64,000 nucleotides of DNA from Holophagales bacterium (GTDB lineage: Bacteria; Acidobacteriota; Thermoanaerobaculia; Multivoradales; UBA5704). The DNA lies in the NCBI GenBank assembly GCA_031404815.1, contig JANNIH010000081.1, forward strand, positions 1,972-65,971. The letters are read 5' to 3'. A program made the translations under genes and the position numbers. Shown in pieces: positions 53,843 through 64,000 of the stretch (position 1 is its first letter; every line of letters begins with the position of its first letter). The notes beneath the pieces are model-generated. The model ran no database searches. It was not told the DNA's origin and saw nothing but the letters and a program-made list of their open reading frames with translations.

Positions 53843-54066
53843 AACGCGCTCTTGGCTCTACCCGCCGTCGCCGTAGCATCGGCACTGGTGGCCGCCCATA
53901 ATTACGCGGCCGAAAACCAGCCCCGCCTGCGGGCGAAGACGATCTCGACGCGGGTGATCTATCTGGATTACGATGGCGGGAGGCAAGGCGGACTTGGAGC
54001 CCGGGGCCAAGTTTCACCTGATTCGGAAGCAGGGGCAAAGAGGCTGGGAAATTCGGTGAGTTGGCT

Positions 54067-54297
54067 CCCGAATTCCATTTCGGGACTCCCGAATTCCATT
54101 TTTTGAGTCCCGAATTCCATTTTTTGAGTCCCGAATTCCATTTCGGGACTGCCGAATTCGAATTCGGGACTGCCGAATTCCATTTTCCGGACCGCGAATT
54201 CCATTTCGGGACTCCCGAATTCCATTTCTTTGGCCCCGAATTCCATTTCGGCGCCCGCGAAATCGATTTCGGCGGTCCCGAATTCGATTTCGCGGCC
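54067..54297. repeat. Tandem array of 11 x 21-bp imperfect repeats, consensus CCCGAATTCCATTTCGGGACT
   Basis: Units start at 54067, 54088, 54109, 54130, 54151, 54172, 54193, 54214, 54235, 54256 and 54277; 11 GAATTC sites; the consensus has a CCCGAA-N6-TTCGGG inverted repeat. Confidence 0.95.
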
Positions 54298-54318
54298 CGA
54301 TCGCATCGGGGGATGACC

Positions 54319-55542
54319 GTGAAAATCCTGATCGTCGTCTCACGCTCGCCCTATCCGCCGCGGCGCGGGGATCAGATGCGGGCGGTTCAGACGCTCGAGG
54401 TCCTCGGGACGACGCACGAAATCACCCTGCTCGCACCTACCGATACCAACGCGCCAACCCGTCTCGGTTCAGGCATCCGGCTTCTGACCTACCGGCCGCC
54501 GGGCCGGTTTGCCAAGATCCTGGGCGTCGGCCGCGCGGCGCTCTCGGGCCAGCCGCTCCAATCGGGGCTGTTCCGAAGCGGCGATCTGGCGAGCAAGCTC
54601 CGAGCGCTCGCACCCCGGCACGATCTTGTCCTCCTTCAGCTCGAGCGGCTGGTTGGGCTCCTCCCCGACCTCGGAGAGACACGTCTGGTCGTCGATCTGA
54701 TCGACAGCCTGGCGCTCAACTTCGAGCGGCGGGCCGAATTCGATGCCTTGCTGTTGCGCCCTGCCCTCCGCTTCGAGGCCGCCCGCCTGCTCGCCGCCGA
54801 GCGGCAGCTGGCCCGGCGCGCCTCGAAAATCTTGGTCGTTTCCGAACGGGATCGCCGCTACCTCGAAGAGCGCCTCGGCCCGGAGCTCGCCGACAAGGTC
54901 GAAGTCGTGCCGCTCGGAGTGTCGATCCCCGAAGAGCTGCCGCCGACGCTCAAGCTCTGGAAGAGGCCGGCCGGCGGAGCGACCGAAGAATCGACGTTCG
55001 AGGTTGCCGCCGACGCCCGTCGCCCGCTGCTCGCGATCACCGGCAACCTCGGCTATTTCCCGACCATCGACGGTTCGCTCTGGTTTCTCGGCGAGGTCTG
55101 GCCGAAGCTGCACGCGGCGCGCCCCGAGGTTCGGTTGCTCTTCGCCGGAGCCCGCCCCCCGGCTCGCCTGCGCGCCGCGATCTCCCGTGCGGGAGCCGAA
55201 TTGATCGAATCGCCGACGGACCTTCGCGCGATTCTTGGGCACGCGACACTCGCAATCGCACCGATGCGCGCTGGCTCGGGCCTGCCGATAAAGATCCTCG
55301 AAGCCTGGTCCGCGGGCGTTCCGGTGCTCACGACTCCTTGGACTGCGGCGGGAGTCTCGGGCCGGGCCGGGGAGGATCTCGCCGTGGTCGAGCCCGATCC
55401 GGCCGCCTGGTGCAGAGAGATTCGCCGCTTGCTCGACGACCCGGCCGCGCGGCAGCGTCTGGTCGAAAACGCCCGACAGAGACTCGCGGCGGACTTCTGC
55501 AAAGAGAGCGTGGCGGCTCGTTGGCGCGCGGCGATCGGGTAA
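54319..55542 (+). CDS. GT4 glycosyltransferase
   Basis: GTG start 'MKILIVVSRSPYPPRRGD' after a G-rich SD; 'GSGLPIKILEA'; alternative ATG at 54313. Confidence 0.85.
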   Translation: MKILIVVSRSPYPPRRGDQMRAVQTLEVLGTTHEITLLAPTDTNAPTRLGSGIRLLTYRPPGRFAKILGVGRAALSGQPLQSGLFRSGDLASKLRALAPRHDLVLLQLERLVGLLPDLGETRLVVDLIDSLALNFERRAEFDALLLRPALRFEAARLLAAERQLARRASKILVVSERDRRYLEERLGPELADKVEVVPLGVSIPEELPPTLKLWKRPAGGATEESTFEVAADARRPLLAITGNLGYFPTIDGSLWFLGEVWPKLHAARPEVRLLFAGARPPARLRAAISRAGAELIESPTDLRAILGHATLAIAPMRAGSGLPIKILEAWSAGVPVLTTPWTAAGVSGRAGEDLAVVEPDPAAWCREIRRLLDDPAARQRLVENARQRLAADFCKESVAARWRAAIG

Positions 55543-56684: not shown

Positions 56685-56714
56685 CCAACTTCTACGACCT
56701 CAGGGAGGTTCTAA

Positions 56715-58367
<1,653 letters not shown>

Positions 58368-58410
58368 GGGAGCGCCTACGGGAGAGTCTCTCCCCGGAAT
58401 CCAGGAGAAA

Positions 58411-58438
58411 ACGGCCGGCCCTTTGCGGGGCCGGCCGT
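58411..58438. terminator. Probably bidirectional intrinsic terminator between convergent genes
   Basis: 11-bp stem ACGGCCGGCCC / GGGCCGGCCGT with a 6-nt loop; T-rich run after it on + and an A-run before it. Confidence 0.8.
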
Positions 58439-58464
58439 CTTGTTTTCCCAGCGGATTGAGAAAT

Positions 58465-59091
58465 CTAGAAGTGGGCGCGCAGACCGAGGTAAACCTTGGT
58501 CTGCAGGCTGTCCTCCGCATCCTGGACCAGGTCGAAACGGCCGGCGCCGAAAGCGCTCAGGTGCTCGCCGAGGAAGAGATCGACCCCGAACTGGGCGTTG
58601 ACTCCGACTTTGTTCTTCGTTCCGGTTTCGTCCGGATTGTCCTTGAGCAGCGCCGCGTCGATCTGGTGGAGGGCGGCGCCGGCCCCGAAGAACGTCTCGA
58701 CATTGCCGAACGGCACCACGCCGATCAAATTGGCGCCGATCGACAGGTCGCTCGCCTTCTCGCCGCCGCGCGCCTCGGAGGTCTCCCAGTAGGCGACCTC
58801 GGGCTCGATGTAACCACGAATCCCGCGATCGACCGAACCGTAGTCCTCCTCGTTCTTGTGACCCGCACGAATGCGTAACGAGACGGTCAGATACGGCTCG
58901 GTGATACCGCTGTTCGAGGGCTCGATCAGACCGATGCCGACACCCAGGGCGAACCGATTCTCTTCTTTGTAATCCGCGTAGGGATCCCGATTCGGATCGC
59001 CATCCCGACTCTGCGGATCTTGAGCCCGCGCTACGGCCGCGGGCAACATCAGGGCCGCCCCTACGGCTACCACGGTGAGCCAATGTTTCAT
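58465..59091 (-). CDS. Outer-membrane beta-barrel protein (8-strand type)
   Basis: AGGAGG SD; signal peptide; alternating beta-strand pattern; C-terminal Phe ('YLGLRAHF'). Confidence 0.75.
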   Translation of the reverse strand: MKHWLTVVAVGAALMLPAAVARAQDPQSRDGDPNRDPYADYKEENRFALGVGIGLIEPSNSGITEPYLTVSLRIRAGHKNEEDYGSVDRGIRGYIEPEVAYWETSEARGGEKASDLSIGANLIGVVPFGNVETFFGAGAALHQIDAALLKDNPDETGTKNKVGVNAQFGVDLFLGEHLSAFGAGRFDLVQDAEDSLQTKVYLGLRAHF

Positions 59092-59167
59092 GCCCGATTC
59101 CCTCCTGTTGCGTAAGAGCCCACGGTCAATAACGAGCGAGAGCCTCAGTTCCTTTTCGGCGCAAGAG

Positions 59168-59185
59168 TTGCAAGTTTCCGGCCAA
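59168..59185 (-). promoter_or_regulatory. Putative sigma54 (-24/-12) promoter
   Basis: TTGGCCGGAAACTTGCAA on the minus strand: GG-N10-GC with TGGC and TTGC cores. Confidence 0.55.
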
Positions 59186-59216
59186 TTCTAGCAAAAAGCA
59201 CTGGGCGCCGCATTTT

Positions 59217-59669
59217 TCAGGACCTGGCTTGCGGGGGTTCGAGAGGCGCGAAGAGATCACCGATCCCGGACACCTCGCCGAGAGGCACGCCGAGGTACTC
59301 GATCCAGGCGTGCGCGACCAGGCTCTCTCCCTCTTTGCGCACGCCGAAGCGGAGTTCGGTTAGGACCCCTTCCTCGGCCAGAAACGAGCGGAGGGCGAGC
59401 GCCCGAGGTACACAGTGCATGGGGTAGAGATGATGGCGGGCGGCGATGTCGACCGCGCGGACCCAAGGTGCGATCGAACTCTCACCGCCGGCCCCAGGCT
59501 CCGGCTTTCGACGGTCGAGGGAGGCGGCCACACGGGCGAAGCCCTGGGCACGCACCCGGAGATCGAGCGCGAGGAGACGGAGGGCGGCACGGATCAATCG
59601 CCGCCGATCCAGCGCAGAAAAAGCGCGCAGTCGGCGCAGGTTAGACCACCGAAAGGTTCGCGGAGACAT
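59217..59669 (-). CDS. Lasso peptide leader peptidase (B2, transglutaminase-like)
   Basis: 'HCVPRALAL' catalytic Cys, 'FGVRK', 'AHAWIE'. Confidence 0.9.
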   Translation of the reverse strand: MSPRTFRWSNLRRLRAFSALDRRRLIRAALRLLALDLRVRAQGFARVAASLDRRKPEPGAGGESSIAPWVRAVDIAARHHLYPMHCVPRALALRSFLAEEGVLTELRFGVRKEGESLVAHAWIEYLGVPLGEVSGIGDLFAPLEPPQARS

Positions 59670-59952
59670 CGATCAATCCGTGCCGCACGAGCTCGTGGAG
59701 CAGGCGGTCGAGATCAGCGGTCACCGTCTCGCGGTCGATTTCGAACTCAGCCAACAGGCGATCTCGAACATCGCCGAGCACCGCTCCTCCGACGAGAAGC
59801 GCCCAGGCGCGGGTTCCGACTTCGTTCAGACCGTAGTAGGTGCCCAACTCGACATTGAGAATGACCATCTCGCCACCGACCTCGCGGGCGAGGACGCCTT
59901 CTCGGGGGCGGACAATGCTGGTGGGCGAGTACTCCAAAGTCGAAATGGTCAT
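59641..59952 (-). CDS. PqqD-family RiPP recognition element (lasso B1)
   Basis: 'EVGGEMVILNVELGTYYGLNEVGTRAWALL...DLDRLLHEL..HGLI'. Confidence 0.9.
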   Translation of the reverse strand: MTISTLEYSPTSIVRPREGVLAREVGGEMVILNVELGTYYGLNEVGTRAWALLVGGAVLGDVRDRLLAEFEIDRETVTADLDRLLHELVRHGLIDVSANLSVV

Positions 59953-59969
59953 GAATTTTCAAGAAGTTA

Positions 59970-60917
59970 TCACAGGGTCGCGAGGCGTTCGAGGATCGCC
60001 TCGCGCACCTCTGGCAGATGCTCGAGGCCGTTCGGATAGACCAGACGAAAGACAGGAACCCGCTCGGCAACCGCAACCAACCGCTCGAAACGTCGGGCGA
60101 CGCCGATCGCCGCTTCGCCGAGCGCGCCGAGGAAGGAGTGGCGTACCAGCTCGATCGTGGCTTCGCGCGGCGTGAGGCGAGTGATCTCAATGTTTGAGCC
60201 CTCCCGGACGGGCAAGAACAACGCGCCGAGCTCGGCCGCGGAATCATGGAAGGCGCCGAGGCCGTTCCCGCCAACGGGGACGCGCAGCTTGTCGAAATCG
60301 GGATGCACCGGCTCGAGCTGGTGAGCATTCTCGACGAATTCTTCAGCCGCGCTTGGCCAGAGCCGCATCTGCGGAAAGCTGGGCTGCGCAAGAACACCGC
60401 CGGTCCCGTCGATGTCGACGGCAAGAACGTCGTCGGTGAGCAACAGGAAGCCAGCGTCCAGGAAGCAGGCCGCGAGACTACTCTTGCCGGCCCGGTTAAA
60501 TCCAAGGAAGCCAACGGCTCCCCCAGGAAGGACTACCGCAGAGCCATGCAAGCAGGTCGCACCGGCCTGTTCGAGCCAGAGCGTCGAGACCAAACCGAGG
60601 AAAAAGATCTCCGCTTCGCCGACTGTGCCACCCTTGAGCTGGTAGTAAATGCCTCCCGCGGCGACATCGAAGCAGGCCACGCCTTTTAGCTGCAGGCGCA
60701 CGTAATTGCCGCGTCGGAATGCACGGAGCCAGGGCTCTTCTTCTAGGAGTCCACTGCTCTGATAGATCTGAACTCCGTTCCCTTCGTCGATAGCTTCAAT
60801 GGTACGGAGTGAGAGGACCGGCTCGCCTCCAACCTCGTGCAGTCGTCCGGCGAGCGCCAGTTCAGACTCGAGAATCCGGCCGTACCAGCGGTAGCGGGGG
60901 AGTGTCGGCGAGTTCAT
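59970..60917 (-). CDS. HPr-kinase-like lasso peptide kinase
   Basis: 'LHGSAV', Walker A GFNRAGKS, 'LLTDD'; ATG overlaps the cyclase TGA. Confidence 0.85.
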   Translation of the reverse strand: MNSPTLPRYRWYGRILESELALAGRLHEVGGEPVLSLRTIEAIDEGNGVQIYQSSGLLEEEPWLRAFRRGNYVRLQLKGVACFDVAAGGIYYQLKGGTVGEAEIFFLGLVSTLWLEQAGATCLHGSAVVLPGGAVGFLGFNRAGKSSLAACFLDAGFLLLTDDVLAVDIDGTGGVLAQPSFPQMRLWPSAAEEFVENAHQLEPVHPDFDKLRVPVGGNGLGAFHDSAAELGALFLPVREGSNIEITRLTPREATIELVRHSFLGALGEAAIGVARRFERLVAVAERVPVFRLVYPNGLEHLPEVREAILERLATL

Positions 60918-62596
60918 GGCTCGAAACGACGGAGCCAAGCCTCAAGCGACAGGCTGTGCCAGAAATCCGTGTTTGCCCTGCGGCCGGAAAGGTAGTCGTC
61001 GACAGCTCGCCGGAGGCTGCTCGGCTCAAGGTACCCTAGTTCTGCTGCGCGCATATCACGAAGAAGCGTCTCGATGTTCGCCCGCTTCACTCGAAGTGCG
61101 CGGTCGAAGAGAGCGGTCGGATAGATCTTGCGGGGACGGTCGAGGATCTCATCGGGAAGGAAGCCACGCATTGCCTGGCGAACGATTGCTTTGGAGAAGC
61201 CATCGGCAAAACTTAAAGTCGCAGGGAAGCTGTACGCGAGATCGATGATTCTGGAATCCAGGTACGGGTGGCGGAGATCGATCCCGAACCTGGCTGCCTC
61301 GGCGGTCATAAGAGCCGTCGTTCCGCGGTGTTGTGAATCGAGAAGGAGTCGTCGATCGTGATCTCCCGGCAAAGCGAACCGGTCTCCCTTCGGAAAGCGC
61401 GGTACGAGTCCACGCAGAGCGGGACTCAGCCATGGGGGAGGCAGCGGTCCATGGAGCGGCAAAAGCCAGCGCGCAGTGCGGCCAAGAATACGGTAGCGAA
61501 TCAGCCAAGGGAGGTCGACATCGACCCTGCGACGATATGCCTTTATTTCCTGAGCTAGCTTGAGCCAACGAAAAGTAAGAAACAAATCGGCGAACGGAAA
61601 TACGGTGCCAAAGGCTAAGTCCCCTCCGTGCCCGGTGAACAGAGTTCCTATTCCTTGCGCACAAGCTTGGATGAATGTCTCTTGCCAGACCTCTCGGTAA
61701 ACGTTGCAAGCCGGGTTTGCGGAATCGGGAGCGAGGCCTCCAGAAGCAGAGAGCGGGTGATGGACATCGGCCGCGATCTCAACGACCTCCATCCCGAGCG
61801 CTCGTGCAACCCGCATTGCAGGCCCGCTCTCGTCTGCATCCGGTGCCGTACGGGCGGCCCAGACAAAGGCAACCATCCCCGCCTCGGGGAGGGCGACGCG
61901 AAGCGCGGCCGCGATCGAGGTCGAATCGAGCCCGCTGCTCAGCGTAATGCCGATTCTTTCGCCTGGTGGAGCGTATTCAGGAACGACAGAGAAGAGCGTC
62001 TTGCGCAACACGGTCGACGCCTCGATCGCACTGCGCGCAGGAAGAAGATGGCGGTGCTGTTGCCGGGATAGGCGAAGCTTGATGCTCCCTCGGTTGATCG
62101 TAAGCGTTGCCCCTGGAGGGAGCACTCGAATACCTCGGAAGAACGTCGTTCCCGGCTCGGGCGTGACGCCACAGATGTGTGCTGCAACCGACGCCGGCTC
62201 GATTCGATCGAAGTTGGCTGTTGCGAAGCACTCCATTCGACTCGATATGACGATCTCGCGGCCGTGCTCGGAGAAAAAAAGTGGGTGTGCCCCCGTTGGA
62301 TCGGCTACCGCAAGGAGCTGCTCCTTTCGGCCATCCCAGATGACAAAGGAGCACGGCCCAGAGATACGATCTGGCAGCTCCATGCCATAGCGGTCATAGC
62401 CGGCTTCCAGGAGAATCTCGATACGGCTGGCAAGTGATGTCTGCCCCTGAGACACAATTTCGCTAGAACAGAGAATGAATCCACCCCACATCAGGCAGAC
62501 TGGCTTGTCGCCGCTCGGAGCGAGGTCCGGTGCGAGGAGATCTCGGCTCCAACGGACGAGTTTCTGCGGCTGAGAGTCAGTGCTCTCCTGTGCCAC
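60914..62596 (-). CDS. Lasso peptide cyclase (asparagine-synthetase-like, no N-terminal Cys)
   Basis: PP-loop 'LSSGLDST', 'FTGHGGD', 'HPYLDSR', 'RPRK'. Start uncertain (GTG 62596, ATG 62650 or ATG 62491). Confidence 0.85.
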   Translation of the reverse strand: MAQESTDSQPQKLVRWSRDLLAPDLAPSGDKPVCLMWGGFILCSSEIVSQGQTSLASRIEILLEAGYDRYGMELPDRISGPCSFVIWDGRKEQLLAVADPTGAHPLFFSEHGREIVISSRMECFATANFDRIEPASVAAHICGVTPEPGTTFFRGIRVLPPGATLTINRGSIKLRLSRQQHRHLLPARSAIEASTVLRKTLFSVVPEYAPPGERIGITLSSGLDSTSIAAALRVALPEAGMVAFVWAARTAPDADESGPAMRVARALGMEVVEIAADVHHPLSASGGLAPDSANPACNVYREVWQETFIQACAQGIGTLFTGHGGDLAFGTVFPFADLFLTFRWLKLAQEIKAYRRRVDVDLPWLIRYRILGRTARWLLPLHGPLPPPWLSPALRGLVPRFPKGDRFALPGDHDRRLLLDSQHRGTTALMTAEAARFGIDLRHPYLDSRIIDLAYSFPATLSFADGFSKAIVRQAMRGFLPDEILDRPRKIYPTALFDRALRVKRANIETLLRDMRAAELGYLEPSSLRRAVDDYLSGRRANTDFWHSLSLEAWLRRFEP

Positions 62597-62768
62597 CCGG
62601 CAAACGCCTTTTCTCAGGGCCCTGATTTTCGCGCGAGCCATCGACGCCATCCGAAGGCCCGAAGTTACCCTCGCGCGTCAGGTCGGACAGCCGTCCATAA
62701 ATCGAGAGCTTTGGCGGGACATATCTCTCACGCAAATCTCCATTCCGGACTGAGCATTTATATCGCAT
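62577..62768 (-). CDS. Lasso peptide precursor (63 aa)
   Basis: MRYKCSVRNGDLRERYVPPKLSIYGRLSDLTR-EGNFGPSDGVDGSRENQGPEKRRLPGGTGEH. Has the YxxPxL leader motif, 'G..xxLT' with Thr at -2, and Asp at core position 8; directly upstream of the cyclase. Confidence 0.78.
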   Translation of the reverse strand: MRYKCSVRNGDLRERYVPPKLSIYGRLSDLTREGNFGPSDGVDGSRENQGPEKRRLPGGTGEH

Positions 62769-62869
62769 CTCTTGAATCCTGTCAGTTTGGCCCGGAGAGT
62801 CTTGAAGCTGCCAAACGGTGATTGAAAGCAAGGCGGCTGGCTCAGCCTAGATTACCGCATCGAGAGCTG

Positions 62870-62898
62870 AAAAAAAAGGCCCGGGGTTCCCCCGGGCC
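62870..62898 (-). terminator. Rho-independent terminator of the upstream secreted-protein gene
   Basis: 9-bp GC stem (62878-62886 / 62890-62898) with a 3-nt loop, followed by T8 on the minus strand. Confidence 0.88.
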
Positions 62899-62949
62899 CA
62901 AAGTCATTGATCAAGAGAGGCTGGCGAAGTGCCAGCCTCTGAAGTGCAA

Positions 62950-63999
62950 CTAGTTACGGTGCGGAGCGCACAGCAACCCGTTGTTGTAGTTGTCCAACAT
63001 CGTGTGCCACGGCGAGGCCGTGGTCCAGGCCGAGCTGCTACCGCGGACGTTGCTGCCGACCGGATAGGTCTTCAGCCAGTTGTCGGCCGAGGTGATGGTC
63101 GCGCTGATGCAGCTGGAGGCATTGCCGACGATGACGTTCAGCTTGGCCGCGATCAGCTGCTTGGCCAAATCGATCGTCTTGTCGCCCCGGCTCGAAGTGC
63201 CGAGCAGCGTGATCGCCTGAGCGACCGTGTAGGTCTGGTTGCCGATCTTGATGCTGGTGACCGGCCAGGCGCTCGCGTGATTTTTCCAGTAACCGATCGT
63301 GGCGGTGCCCGGAGCCGGAGTCGTCGGCGGGCACTGGACGATATCGACGTTGATGTCGCCCTGTCCGGTGGCCGGGAAGCAGGCACCTGAATTGGGCTGC
63401 GTGACCACCGTCCATCGGTACCAACCGGAGGCCCCGAAGTTGAGGTTCTTACCGTTGGCGCCGACTCCGACCTGGAACGCCGGGCCGGTGCGGGTGATGC
63501 TGATGGCGCCGCCGACGTTGTTGTCGATACCGGTCAGGGTGCCGTTATACCCGGTGTAGTAGAACCAGGTCCCGGTGTTGACCGGTCCACCGTTCTCCGA
63601 GTACGCCGAAGCCATGAGCTCTTTCTTCGGGCTGCCGGCGGGAGCGACGCTCGTCCGGCCGGTGAACGTGATGCTCACCACCCAGGCGTTCAGTGGGTTG
63701 GACAAGCTGCGCAACGTCCCGTTCATGTTCGCCGTGCCGTTCGAATTCTGCATGAACGTACCCGGGGACGGAGTGAACTGGTAATCGGTACCGATGCCCG
63801 GGAGCCAGAAGGCATGATTGGCTCCAGCGCCCTGAACCGACGGGTCGTTGATCGCTTCGTCCACACACTGCTCGTTGTTGCTCGGAGTGCGGTAGCCGAA
63901 GTCGACATCGAGCTTCGCCTGACCGCCCGCGAGCGAGAGCGCCACGGTGTTCGCGGTGCCGATCCCATCGAGGTCGTAGGTCTGCACATTTCCGGCCGG
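62950..63999 (-). CDS. Large secreted protein (SdrD-B-like repeat end plus 'IGYWKNH' C-terminal domain), 5'-truncated by window edge
   Basis: Frame is open to the window end; 'YDLDGIGTAN...DVDFGY' and 'TIGYWKNH..AWP...QLIAAKLN'. Confidence 0.7.
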   Translation of the reverse strand, partial: PAGNVQTYDLDGIGTANTVALSLAGGQAKLDVDFGYRTPSNNEQCVDEAINDPSVQGAGANHAFWLPGIGTDYQFTPSPGTFMQNSNGTANMNGTLRSLSNPLNAWVVSITFTGRTSVAPAGSPKKELMASAYSENGGPVNTGTWFYYTGYNGTLTGIDNNVGGAISITRTGPAFQVGVGANGKNLNFGASGWYRWTVVTQPNSGACFPATGQGDINVDIVQCPPTTPAPGTATIGYWKNHASAWPVTSIKIGNQTYTVAQAITLLGTSSRGDKTIDLAKQLIAAKLNVIVGNASSCISATITSADNWLKTYPVGSNVRGSSSAWTTASPWHTMLDNYNNGLLCAPHRN

Positions 64000-64000
64000 A

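Follow-up and report, generated by a model that had tools for sequence, protein, structure and literature searches.

A long-tailed lasso peptide precursor from an uncultured Thermoanaerobaculia bacterium, its HPr-kinase-like partner and a predicted phosphosite within the tail

A lasso precursor lacking a C-terminal Ser heads a kinase-bearing operon in the 64-kb window (the whole stretch of 64,000 nucleotides under analysis), and a Gly-Ser/Thr pattern that recurs over 62 distinct cores of related kinase loci points to a Ser within its long tail, Ser13, as the likely phosphoacceptor. More generally, the kinases of this family probably target a conserved Ser located within the tail, not one at its end. 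As a whole, the explanation that on balance we favour is that of an A-C-K-B1-B2 lasso system whose product would be phosphorylated on Ser13 and closed into a Glu1-Asp8 ring. What is new here is the Gly-Ser/Thr pattern; previous descriptions of lasso phosphorylation concern a Ser at the C-terminus, apart from a single case at Ser3.

The DNA derives from an uncultured Thermoanaerobaculia bacterium (Acidobacteriota) of freshwater sediment. The precursor gene (A) occupies 62577..62768 on the minus strand, running from an ATG at 62768 to a TGA stop at 62579-62577, and its 63-aa product comprises a 32-aa leader (62673-62768), MRYKCSVRNGDLRERYVPPKLSIYGRLSDLTR, followed by a 31-aa core (62580-62672), EGNFGPSDGVDGSRENQGPEKRRLPGGTGEH. 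Although the mechanical ORF begins further up, with a TTG at 62831, the ATG is taken as the start because the leaders of the homologues have 13-15 residues before the Tyr. The leader segment YVPPKLSIYGRLSDLTR matches the lasso motif YxxPxLx3Gx5Tx exactly, this being the single match within the window, and the 63-aa peptide narrowly passes the NCBIfam model NF033521 (lasso_leader_L3; 19.8 bits, cutoff 19). A protein search that used only the precursor as query returned no match. With Thr at -2, the core begins with Glu (Glu1, 62670-62672), has Asn at position 3 and Asp at position 8 (Asp8, 62649-62651), and continues into a 23-residue tail rich in Gly, Pro, Arg and Glu, which holds Ser13 (62634-62636) and, in the near-terminal stretch GGTGEH, Thr28 (62589-62591) before the final His31. 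An earlier sequence-only reading had described the Glu start, Asp8, the 23-residue tail and the terminal His in just this way, and had taken the ORF for a lasso precursor; given the exact leader motif, the NF033521 pass, the adjoining lasso genes and 13 syntenic homologues, the ORF almost certainly represents a genuine lasso precursor with a real tail.

That reading had also considered a lost stop codon near 62630, i.e., that a lost stop or frameshift after '...DGS' hides a conventional Ser-terminated precursor. There is a precedent in pseudomycoidin, whose deposited psmA sequence had a terminal Asn that proved to be Ser on resequencing (PMC6993621), and the precursor tail in the window shares its DNA with the overlapping cyclase ORF. 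Against this, contigs assembled independently from other samples and covering the precursor (X1 at a depth of 23.6; X3 spanning 62573-62929) show 0 differences and no indels over 62573-62929, and all 13 syntenic relatives continue for 12-18 residues past the GS with similarly Pro/Gly/Arg-rich tails and a common PG-x-[ST]-G ending, one of them (L091) having a core of exactly the same 31-aa length. The remaining two frames of the tail region yield only an N-terminal extension of the cyclase or a short dead-end peptide, with nothing resembling the relatives. The identical independent assemblies and the comparative data effectively refute a frameshift or lost stop, which is thus hardly credible; by sequence comparison, the long tail is truly encoded and typical of the clade, being neither a chance ORF nor an assembly error.

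Precursor A is the first of five genes in the order A-C-K-B1-B2, all on the minus strand, which can with some confidence be read as a class-II-type lasso peptide operon. The Asn-synthase-like lasso cyclase C (60914..62596) matches PF00733 (3e-32) and, below its cutoff, the lasso cyclase model NF033535 (4e-42). Its likely start, a GTG at 62596 (560 aa) overlapping the final 20 nt of the precursor, is preferred to the gene caller's ATG at 62641 (575 aa) because the homologues measure 557-564 aa and the N-terminal alignment places their starts at the GTG. The ATG of the HPr-kinase-like lasso peptide kinase K (315 aa; 59970..60917), assigned from its homologues, catalytic residues and fold, overlaps the cyclase stop (ATGA) and couples C and K; K is the sole tailoring gene of the operon. 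It is followed by B1, a PqqD-type RiPP recognition element (59641..59952; PF05402, 9e-17; lasso_PqqD models below cutoff), and B2, a transglutaminase-like leader peptidase (59217..59669; PF13471, 1.5e-18; NF033537 lasso_biosyn_B2, 57.5 bits against a cutoff of 33). No ABC exporter gene is present in the cluster. On its 3' side lies a gene for a beta-barrel-like outer-membrane protein of 208 aa (58465..59091, minus strand; a weak PF13505 match), while its upstream border is marked by a strong intrinsic-terminator-like hairpin with T8 (62877..62899, minus strand) that ends the upstream giant gene. A sigma-70 promoter scan gave no match, and a search for RNA runs found none.

The assignment of K is borne out by several lines of comparison. 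H124, G144, K145, D162 and D163 (315-aa numbering; H131, K152, D169 and D170 for the His, Lys and two Asp in that of the 322-aa ORF) are invariant in 36 kinase sequences, and the same His/Lys/Asp-Asp residues are required in PadeK and ThcoK (PMC9266682) as well as in BsfK (PMC10368454). In BLASTP, K is 27% identical to BsfK over 214 aa (41% in the P-loop block; E = 1e-10), and a profile comparison matches it to the HPr kinase 3tqf at 5e-5. Its structure model (pLDDT 93.5) has a PEPCK/HPrK-like fold. Membership of TIGR04352 (HprK_rel_A) was also considered and rejected, K scoring 17 bits against a cutoff of 200.

A genome scan with a single cyclase sequence gave no match, after which an alignment of the kinases was used as the query, with success. 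Thirteen syntenic loci share the arrangement giant SdrD_B protein - A - C - K - B1 - B2 - OMP - groEL, each with a precursor at the equivalent place and with tails equally long and rich in Pro, Gly and Arg. In every close locus the cluster is followed by the gene for the 208-aa outer-membrane protein, as it also is in several distant loci of Thermoanaerobaculia without a groEL neighbour, and this protein is possibly associated with the lasso cluster. Two further cyclase relatives (L092 and L093), taken up as prospective kinase-free controls, both have the kinase, and the latter carries in addition a 2OG-Fe(II) oxygenase gene, an example of the extra tailoring genes seen in some relatives. The clade spans Thermoanaerobaculia, other Acidobacteriota, Gemmatimonadota, Chloroflexota, cyanobacteria and others. 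The locus belongs to a large and phylogenetically broad family, in which no characterised member was found, and it can be seen as a RiPP island that diverges fast while its chromosomal site stays fixed.

The cores of the close relatives may be laid side by side as ring, spacer, Gly-Ser and remainder. Those beginning with Glu are EGGLGPDD GFD GS QVGSRPGKDPRGSFPGHE (L091), EDSGDGAD SFPGF GS QPATRPNPGETGRR (L001) and EDSGDGAD SIPGF GS RPATRPNPKGEYK (L087, with the C-terminal end NPKGEYK); SENGDGED ADFL GS RPATKPNPGKFVGSHGGF (L003) begins with Ser, and L004, L006 and L088-90 likewise have S-type cores. To these may be added AAGxFGxPD GxF GS R... (L008 and L009) and SGGSVVFD GVT GS RDESRPNP... (L011). 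Residue 1 is accordingly Glu, Ser or Ala, and the ring acid is an invariant Asp8, or Asp9 in L008 and L009. Position 3 is N, G or S (Ser in L001 and L087 only), and position 7 varies among S, D, A, E, K, N and F.

With residue 1 being Glu, Ser or Ala and Asp8/9 invariant, the cores support a macrolactam between Glu1 and Asp8, and the window peptide probably has this eight-residue ring. Cleavage after Thr(-2)/Arg(-1), which exposes Glu1 and closes the ring on Asp8, had been the first proposal of the sequence-only reading, and this register fits all relatives. Its second proposal, cleavage one residue later with Gly as residue 1, Thr at -3 and a seven-residue Gly1-Asp7 ring, has in its favour that Gly is the most frequent residue 1 (18 of the 62 cores) and that it immediately follows Glu in the cores of both the window and L091. 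Nevertheless, the shifted register brings no gain: the cores would begin with Asp in L001 and L087 and with either Glu or Asp in the S-type relatives, so that the common register is lost. The Thr(-2) register, on the other hand, puts the acceptor at Asp8 in every close relative other than L008 and L009, which have one extra ring residue. The spacing from the leader Tyr to the cleavage site is constant in 62/62 precursors, as the scan itself required, and every one of the 62 cores has its ring acid at position 8 or 9, the scan having selected for an acid at positions 7-9. Moreover, Glu1 has an experimental precedent in palassoptide A2, described in 2026, in which Glu1 with an eight-residue ring was demonstrated (PMC13632552), so that a lasso cyclase is able to use Glu1. 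The Gly1-Asp7 ring is in consequence very improbable. Within the family, Glu1 is found in 6 of the 62 cores, in several cyclase lineages. A comparison of the cyclases of the Glu1 group (three deep lineages) with those of the Ser1 group (one clade, 61-81% identical) gave 13 group-specific columns, e.g., column 510 (A versus E) and column 528 (R/N versus S), from which no conclusion is drawn because phylogeny confounds the grouping.

Since the precursor has no C-terminal Ser, the kinase must use another acceptor, as the sequence-only reading had recognised; the four acceptors that it offered (Ser7, Ser13, Thr28 and His31) do not fare alike, with conservation singling out Ser13 and none of the other three. 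The pattern was drawn from 62 distinct cores, all from loci chosen via this kinase and many of them mutually related, in a scan selecting for the ring acid and a fixed leader spacing. A G[ST] is present in the tail in 55 of these, and in 52 of the 55 the ring acid precedes the Ser/Thr by 4-7 residues. When only the first 10 tail residues are counted, G[ST] occurs in 53/62 cores as against 24.7 +/- 3.4 (maximum 35) in 2000 shuffles of the tails, and five cores judged by eye to be genuine exceptions still have a Ser/Thr at +5 to +7. A C-terminal Ser, by comparison, is found in only 5/62 cores and in one of the 10 distinct cores of the close syntenic set. Because G-S/T is conserved in the tail and a final Ser is rare, we predict that Ser13 is the acceptor, with Thr28 as its main rival.

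The rival holds that, with the same precursor and ring, the kinase acts near the C-terminus on Thr28, alone or together with Ser13, so that this Thr, in a long tail, would take the place of the Ser at or near the C-terminus that other lasso kinases use. It draws on the fact that 12 of the 13 close relatives have a Ser/Thr, mostly after Gly, in the last 2-6 residues (GETGRR, GSTGR, GSVGR, GSHGGF, GSFPGHE, DDTPR, GTRS and GPTR), a second G-[ST] to which Thr28 corresponds in the window, and on the short-tailed relatives, such as L026 (GTQANIEDDGFSGSGAV), whose conserved G-S sits just 3-6 residues from the end. Yet this near-terminal residue varies in position and identity, is absent from L087, and has a roughly 50% chance of occurring in the last six residues at this composition (a rough estimate rather than a computed value). 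The offset of Ser13 from the ring acid, by contrast, is constant across phyla while anything from 3 to 33 residues may separate it from the C-terminus. Phosphorylation at Thr28 thus appears unlikely, and Ser13 the better candidate.

A further alternative is that the conserved G-S/T is structural, serving a tight turn or cyclase recognition, with the HPrK-like protein modifying Ser7 or another substrate, or priming further modification by enzymes encoded elsewhere. Gly-rich loops are indeed frequent in lasso peptides, and some relatives have tailoring genes such as the oxygenase mentioned above. In BsfA, with the core GTSGNEVDGSTPADRGNNPGD (GTSGNEVD-GS-TPADRGNNPGD), the site is Ser3, and BsfK passes over the Gly-Ser after the ring acid, the S10A change in 'D-G-S' not abolishing phosphorylation (PMC10368454); the presence of a G-S beyond the ring acid is thus no guarantee of a phosphosite. 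Against a purely structural role, Thr is the sole substitute for Ser at the G-[ST] position (5 of 55 cases), a retention of the hydroxyl that a modification site would predict. In addition, no second hydroxyl residue is conserved, positions 3 and 7 being variable, and the operon in the window encodes no tailoring enzyme besides the kinase. The structural alternative is therefore rather improbable, and the reading with Ser13 as the acceptor is retained below.

On this reading, B1 would bind the YxxPxL leader, whereupon K would phosphorylate the linear precursor at core Ser13, the Ser of the invariant 'G-S' five residues past the ring-closing Asp. Cleavage by B2 after Thr(-2)-Arg(-1) would then expose Glu1, and the cyclase would link its alpha-amine to the side chain of Asp8, closing the eight-residue ring around the tail. 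We infer this order by analogy with PadeK and BsfK. The monoisotopic masses calculated for the predicted core are 3235.499 Da in linear form, 3217.489 Da as the dehydrated lasso and 3297.455 Da for the latter with one phosphate (+79.966 Da each). The phosphorylated Ser13 and the neighbouring Arg14 may serve as a steric lock, the candidate plugs being pSer13/Arg14, Lys21, Arg22, Arg23 and Leu24; for the window peptide, phosphosite, threading and plug function are all putative. Many distant members have tails with no bulky residue (GS-GAV, GS-VPV and GS-TQTG), so that a bulky group on the Ser of the G-S would supply the lock, and a bulky modification acting as lock was speculated for pseudomycoidin (PMC6993621).

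Directly upstream, the giant SdrD_B-repeat protein ends in a C-terminal domain of ~120 aa (GYWKNH...SCI...YNNGxLCAPxR; 62950..63321, minus strand), which is encoded immediately before lasso clusters of the kinase type in other lineages as well (23 loci, including 2 from Chloroflexota). This domain has 3392 representative relatives, in which it is nearly always C-terminal. It gave no match against Pfam, NCBIfam or PDB, and a single-sequence AlphaFold model was unusable (pLDDT 43). The lasso cluster might conceivably be functionally tied to this domain of the secreted protein upstream, which accompanies such clusters as far afield as Chloroflexota. A bolder proposal, which we hold only tentatively and consider unlikely as a whole, is that of a phospho-locked lasso, wherein the kinases of the clade phosphorylate an invariant loop Ser/Thr about five residues after the ring acid, the phosphate acts as the steric lock, and the cluster might be tied to the ~120-aa domain.

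If phosphorylation at Ser13 is true, it would constitute a third phosphosite, a conserved loop/tail Ser just after the ring, and would widen the regiochemistry of lasso kinases; it would also furnish a rule for predicting the phosphosite from the sequence (Gly-Ser at the ring acid + 5) and might present a case of a lasso held in its threaded state by a post-translational group. The sequence-only reading went too far in holding that either outcome would be new chemistry, for both Glu1 (palassoptide A2; PMC13632552) and an internal phospho-Ser (Ser3 by BsfK; PMC10368454) are known. With a single Glu1 lasso known so far, the locus nonetheless brings natural Glu1 precursors from a second phylum.

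The comparison with known systems yields partial parallels with several of them. Pandonodin, a proteobacterial lasso peptide of ~33 aa, reportedly has an unusually long C-terminal tail and no kinase; a 23-residue tail in a core of 31 aa is thus not without precedent, though the two differ in sequence, phylum and the presence of the kinase. Palassoptide A2, from an oral Actinomyces, shares Glu at core position 1 and the eight-residue macrolactam, which in the window is predicted from the register, but its actinobacterial cluster is unrelated, encodes another core and lacks a kinase (PMC13632552). The resemblance to paeninodin, pseudomycoidin and ThcoA/SyanA lies in the class-II-type cluster, the split B1/B2 and an HPr-kinase homologue with His-Lys-Asp-Asp, the kinases of the PadeK, PsmK, ThcoK and SyanK type acting on the linear precursor (PMC8498205, PMC9266682, PMC6993621). 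The window differs from the paeninodin type in its order A-C-K-B1-B2, in lacking an ABC transporter and a nucleotidyltransferase, in its phylum and in having Glu1 rather than Ala1; furthermore, precursors of that type end in the acceptor Ser, whereas that of the window ends in His31. Another parallel might be struck with BsfA/BsfK of Bradymonas sediminis (2023), wherein a homologous kinase, aided by B1, phosphorylates the internal Ser3 of a linear precursor that ends in Asp (PMC10368454): both precursors lack a final Ser, both have an internal phosphosite (that of the window being predicted), and the cores resemble one another, that of BsfA having Asp8, a G-S past the ring acid and a tail rich in NPG. 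The bsf cluster, however, has additional N and D genes, and its leader has Ile at -2 (Ile or Val in the Bradymonadales type) where the window has Thr. While BsfK uses Ser3 (Ser/Thr at position 3 in its type), position 3 in the window is Asn; and while the G-S of BsfA comes immediately after Asp8 and does not serve as the site, that of the window lies at +4/+5 and contains the only conserved hydroxyl.

The precursor gene (62577-62768, minus strand, 63 codons plus TGA) is the first of a minus-strand operon that continues with genes for an Asn-synthase-like cyclase (60914-62596, minus; PF00733 at 3e-32), an HPr-kinase-like protein, K (59970-60917, minus), whose ATG overlaps the cyclase stop as ATGA, a PqqD-type RRE, B1 (59641-59952, minus), and a transglutaminase-like leader peptidase, B2 (59217-59669, minus; NF033537, 57.5 bits against a cutoff of 33). 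Its product, MRYKCSVRNGDLRERYVPPKLSIYGRLSDLTR-EGNFGPSDGVDGSRENQGPEKRRLPGGTGEH (leader-core), exactly matches the lasso motif YxxPxLx3Gx5Tx in its leader, the single match on both strands of the 64-kb window, and the 63-aa peptide narrowly passes the NCBIfam model NF033521, lasso_leader_L3 (19.8 bits against a cutoff of 19). Together with the adjoining lasso operon, this bears out the sequence-only reading of the ORF as a lasso precursor. The mechanical ORF extends upstream as far as TTG 62831; a start at ATG 62768 leaves 15 residues ahead of the motif Tyr, the homologues having 13-15. A strong terminator-like hairpin with T8 (62899-62877) ends the giant SdrD_B-repeat gene upstream and sets the upstream border of the lasso operon. 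GTG 62596 is the most probable start codon of the cyclase (560 aa), since cyclase homologues have 557-564 aa and N-termini aligning there. This start overlaps the precursor 3' end (last six codons and stop) by 20 nt (62577-62596); in all relatives examined the two genes lie 7-32 nt apart. The gene caller's ATG 62641 would lengthen the overlap to 65 nt and extend the N-terminus in a way seen in no homologue.

The long tail of the precursor is real, as seen from identical independent contigs and from equally long tails in 13 syntenic relatives. Assembled contigs from other freshwater-sediment samples, X1 (depth 23.6) and X3 (spanning 62573-62929), show 0 substitutions and 0 indels against the precursor region. 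The 13 loci hold cyclase and kinase relatives at 50-65% identity, share the order giant protein, precursor, cyclase, kinase, B1, B2, outer-membrane protein, groEL, and each have a precursor at the same position. Laid out as ring / loop / G-S / tail, the window core is EGNFGPSD / GVD / GS / RENQGPEKRRLPGGTGEH, matched in its length of 31 aa by that of L091, EGGLGPDD / GFD / GS / QVGSRPGKDPRGSFPGHE. The other close cores are EDSGDGAD / SFPGF / GS / QPATRPNPGETGRR (L001), EDSGDGAD / SIPGF / GS / RPATRPNPKGEYK (L087), SENGDGED / ADFL / GS / RPATKPNPGKFVGSHGGF (L003), SENGDGED / AEFA / GS / RPASRPPGSTGR (L004), SDNGDGED / VDFL / GS / RPATRPPGSVGR (L006, L089, L090), SENGDGED / ADLL / GS / RPATRPPGSVGR (L088), AAGQFGKPD / GLF / GS / RVASRPTPGDDTPR (L008), AAGNFGNPD / GFF / GS / RANSKPDPGKGTRS (L009) and SGGSVVFD / GVT / GS / RDESRPNPDGPQRPGPTR (L011). 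The suspicion that a stop codon had been lost near 'DGS' was reasonable, given that the deposited psmA gene carried exactly such an error (PMC6993621). It is excluded by the identical contigs and by the relatives' read-through: at none of the 13 loci does the precursor stop at 'DGS', and all close cores run on past G-S for 12-18 more Pro/Gly/Arg-rich residues. Only L009 ends in Ser among the close relatives.

The register with Thr at -2, Glu1 and a ring closed on Asp8 is also the probable one, the ring acid being constant across the close relatives (Asp9 in L008 and L009, whose rings are one residue longer). Residue 1 is Glu in the window, L091 and L001/L087, and otherwise Ser or Ala. A cut shifted by one, making Gly residue 1, had been offered as an alternative; it is highly improbable because the remaining relatives would then begin with Asp1 or Glu1 and the fixed Tyr-to-cut spacing would be broken. 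In the Thr(-2) register, Glu1 is rare, yet with precedent. In the wider set, 6 of the 62 distinct cores have it, including those of the unrelated cyclase lineages L048 and L062, and so does palassoptide A2, characterised in 2026 with an eight-residue ring, whose authors describe Glu1 as unprecedented among lasso peptides characterised (PMC13632552). A large-scale survey, as cited in that paper, found any residue but Pro at position 1 of predicted precursors (PMC13632552).

The K-family profile matches HPr kinases in the PDB (3tqf, 5e-5), the AlphaFold model of K (pLDDT 93.5) matches the PEPCK/HPrK-type P-loop fold, and H124, G144, K145, D162 and D163 are invariant among 36 homologues, with all the His/Lys/Asp-Asp residues essential in lasso kinases (PMC9266682, PMC10368454) kept. 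PadeK, ThcoK, SyanK and PsmK phosphorylate the C-terminal Ser of the linear precursor (PMC8498205, PMC9266682, PMC6993621). BsfK, to which K is 27% identical over 214 residues (41% in the P-loop block), phosphorylates Ser3 of a precursor ending in Asp, in a reaction sped up by B1 (PMC10368454), and thus provides a precedent for an internal acceptor.

From 80 genome loci fetched via kinase alignment, the leader motif yielded 62 distinct cores, all kinase-selected and 2 of them probably spurious matches. A G-[ST] dipeptide is present in the tails of 55 (G-S in 50), with the Ser/Thr at +5 from the ring acid in 29, +6 in 15, +7 in 6, +4 in 2 and 9-14 past it in three further cores; inspection by eye showed that the five genuine exceptions retain a Ser/Thr at +5 to +7. 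In 53/62 cores the dipeptide falls among the first ten residues of the tail, against 24.7 +/- 3.4 after shuffling (maximum 35, 2000 shuffles of each tail). From 3 to 33 residues follow the conserved Ser/Thr, and a C-terminal Ser, rightly reported as missing from the window core, is found in only 5/62. No other hydroxyl residue is conserved: N, G or S occupies position 3, and position 7 varies. Of the acceptors proposed earlier (Ser7, Ser13, Thr28, His31), conservation thus favours Ser13 (codon 62634-62636), on balance the predicted phosphosite, and not Ser7. The main rival, phosphorylation at Thr28, appears unlikely, though a second G-x-[ST], loose in its placing, occurs 2-6 residues before the C-terminus in 12 of the 13 close relatives, and in short-tailed relatives the conserved Ser itself lies near the C-terminus. 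Caution against taking G-S as the site also comes, by analogy, from BsfA, which was still phosphorylated when its 'D-G-S' carried S10A (PMC10368454). Distant members often have no bulky residue after G-S (tails GSGAV, GSVPV, GSTQTG), from which a group on the conserved Ser may act as a steric lock; the idea of locking by terminal modifications has been raised before for pseudomycoidin (PMC6993621). In the close clade, where G-S-R occurs in 11/13, the Arg could be a partner plug.

No ABC exporter, nucleotidyltransferase or further tailoring gene was found in the surroundings of the lasso operon. Downstream, 125 nt after B2, lies a gene (58465-59091, minus), convergent with groES-groEL, for a 208-aa protein whose outer-membrane beta-barrel signature is weak; it might substitute for the absent exporter or be merely syntenic. 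Such a gene is also found 3' of kinase/lasso genes in distant Thermoanaerobaculia with no groEL neighbour (L013, L016, L017, L030, L040, L066, L071). Comparing 56700-64000 with L001-L012 and L087-L091, the flanks are at 95-99% (GroEL), 73-93% (OMP-like) and mostly 84-97% (giant-protein C-terminus) identity, against 36-57% for the cyclase, 54-65% for the kinase, 54-69% for B1 and 56-71% for B2, with very different cores. The lasso cluster is an island that evolves fast while its place in the chromosome stays fixed.

The C-terminal ~120 aa of the giant protein form a conserved two-Cys domain (62950-63321, minus; PGTGTxGYWKNHxxAWPV...DKT...QLVAAKLN..GN..SCI...AD.W...YNNGxLCAPxR-stop), with no match in Pfam, NCBIfam or PDB and 3392 representative relatives, almost always C-terminal. 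It recurs at L016 3758-4123, L025 316-681 and L027 1356-1721, and in L026, L057, L066, L071, L073 and L084. In 23 of the fetched loci, a kinase-type lasso cluster has a protein ending in this domain immediately upstream; two of these loci are from Chloroflexota, where the remainder of the protein differs. A functional tie to the cluster is possible. Separately, 54065-54292 holds a tandem array with 10.9 copies of a palindromic 21-nt unit, CTCCCGAATTCCATTTCGGGA, at 81% matches; the inverted repeat in every unit is TCCCGAA ... TTCGGGA. The array either belongs to the 5' end of a glycosyltransferase-like ORF (54061-55542) or immediately precedes it, and if translated would give PEFHFGT-type repeats.

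The kinase family spans Thermoanaerobaculia and other Acidobacteriota, Gemmatimonadota, Chloroflexota, Actinomycetota, cyanobacteria and methanogen MAGs, with no characterised member found in the searchable literature. The methanogen homologues are in L041 (Methanolinea), with two nearby lasso-type precursors, GGTGVYQDNGGAGSYSPVRLD and GSLGDLQDAGGADSYNPEP, and L060 (Methanothrix); these may be kinase-bearing archaeal lasso clusters or else mis-binned contigs. The G-S rule is broken in two more distant kinase-bearing clusters: L093 9089-9262, from Acidobacteria and bearing a 2OG-Fe(II) oxygenase as well, whose core TSPPDALD-STMRPGERRHRLEESDQRE has Ser-Thr directly past the ring acid and a tail that is long and charged, and L092 4670-4849 (Deltaproteobacteria), core GGTGGNPE-VPPLVGNTSEAV. 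In the only five open-access papers found to bring up both lasso peptides and HPr kinase, the G-S pattern does not appear. The gene is ordinary within its own family, and the interest lies in the family-level rule of Gly-Ser at ring acid plus about 5. The earlier expectation of new chemistry is overstated for Glu1 and for an internal acceptor, for which palassoptide A2 (PMC13632552) and BsfK (PMC10368454) are precedents. In its working, the locus would resemble a kinase-tailored class-II lasso system. It differs from the paeninodin type in the absence of the defining C-terminal Ser of the substrate, and from the BsfA type (core GTSGNEVD-GS-TPADRGNNPGD) in having neither Ile at -2 nor Ser/Thr at position 3.
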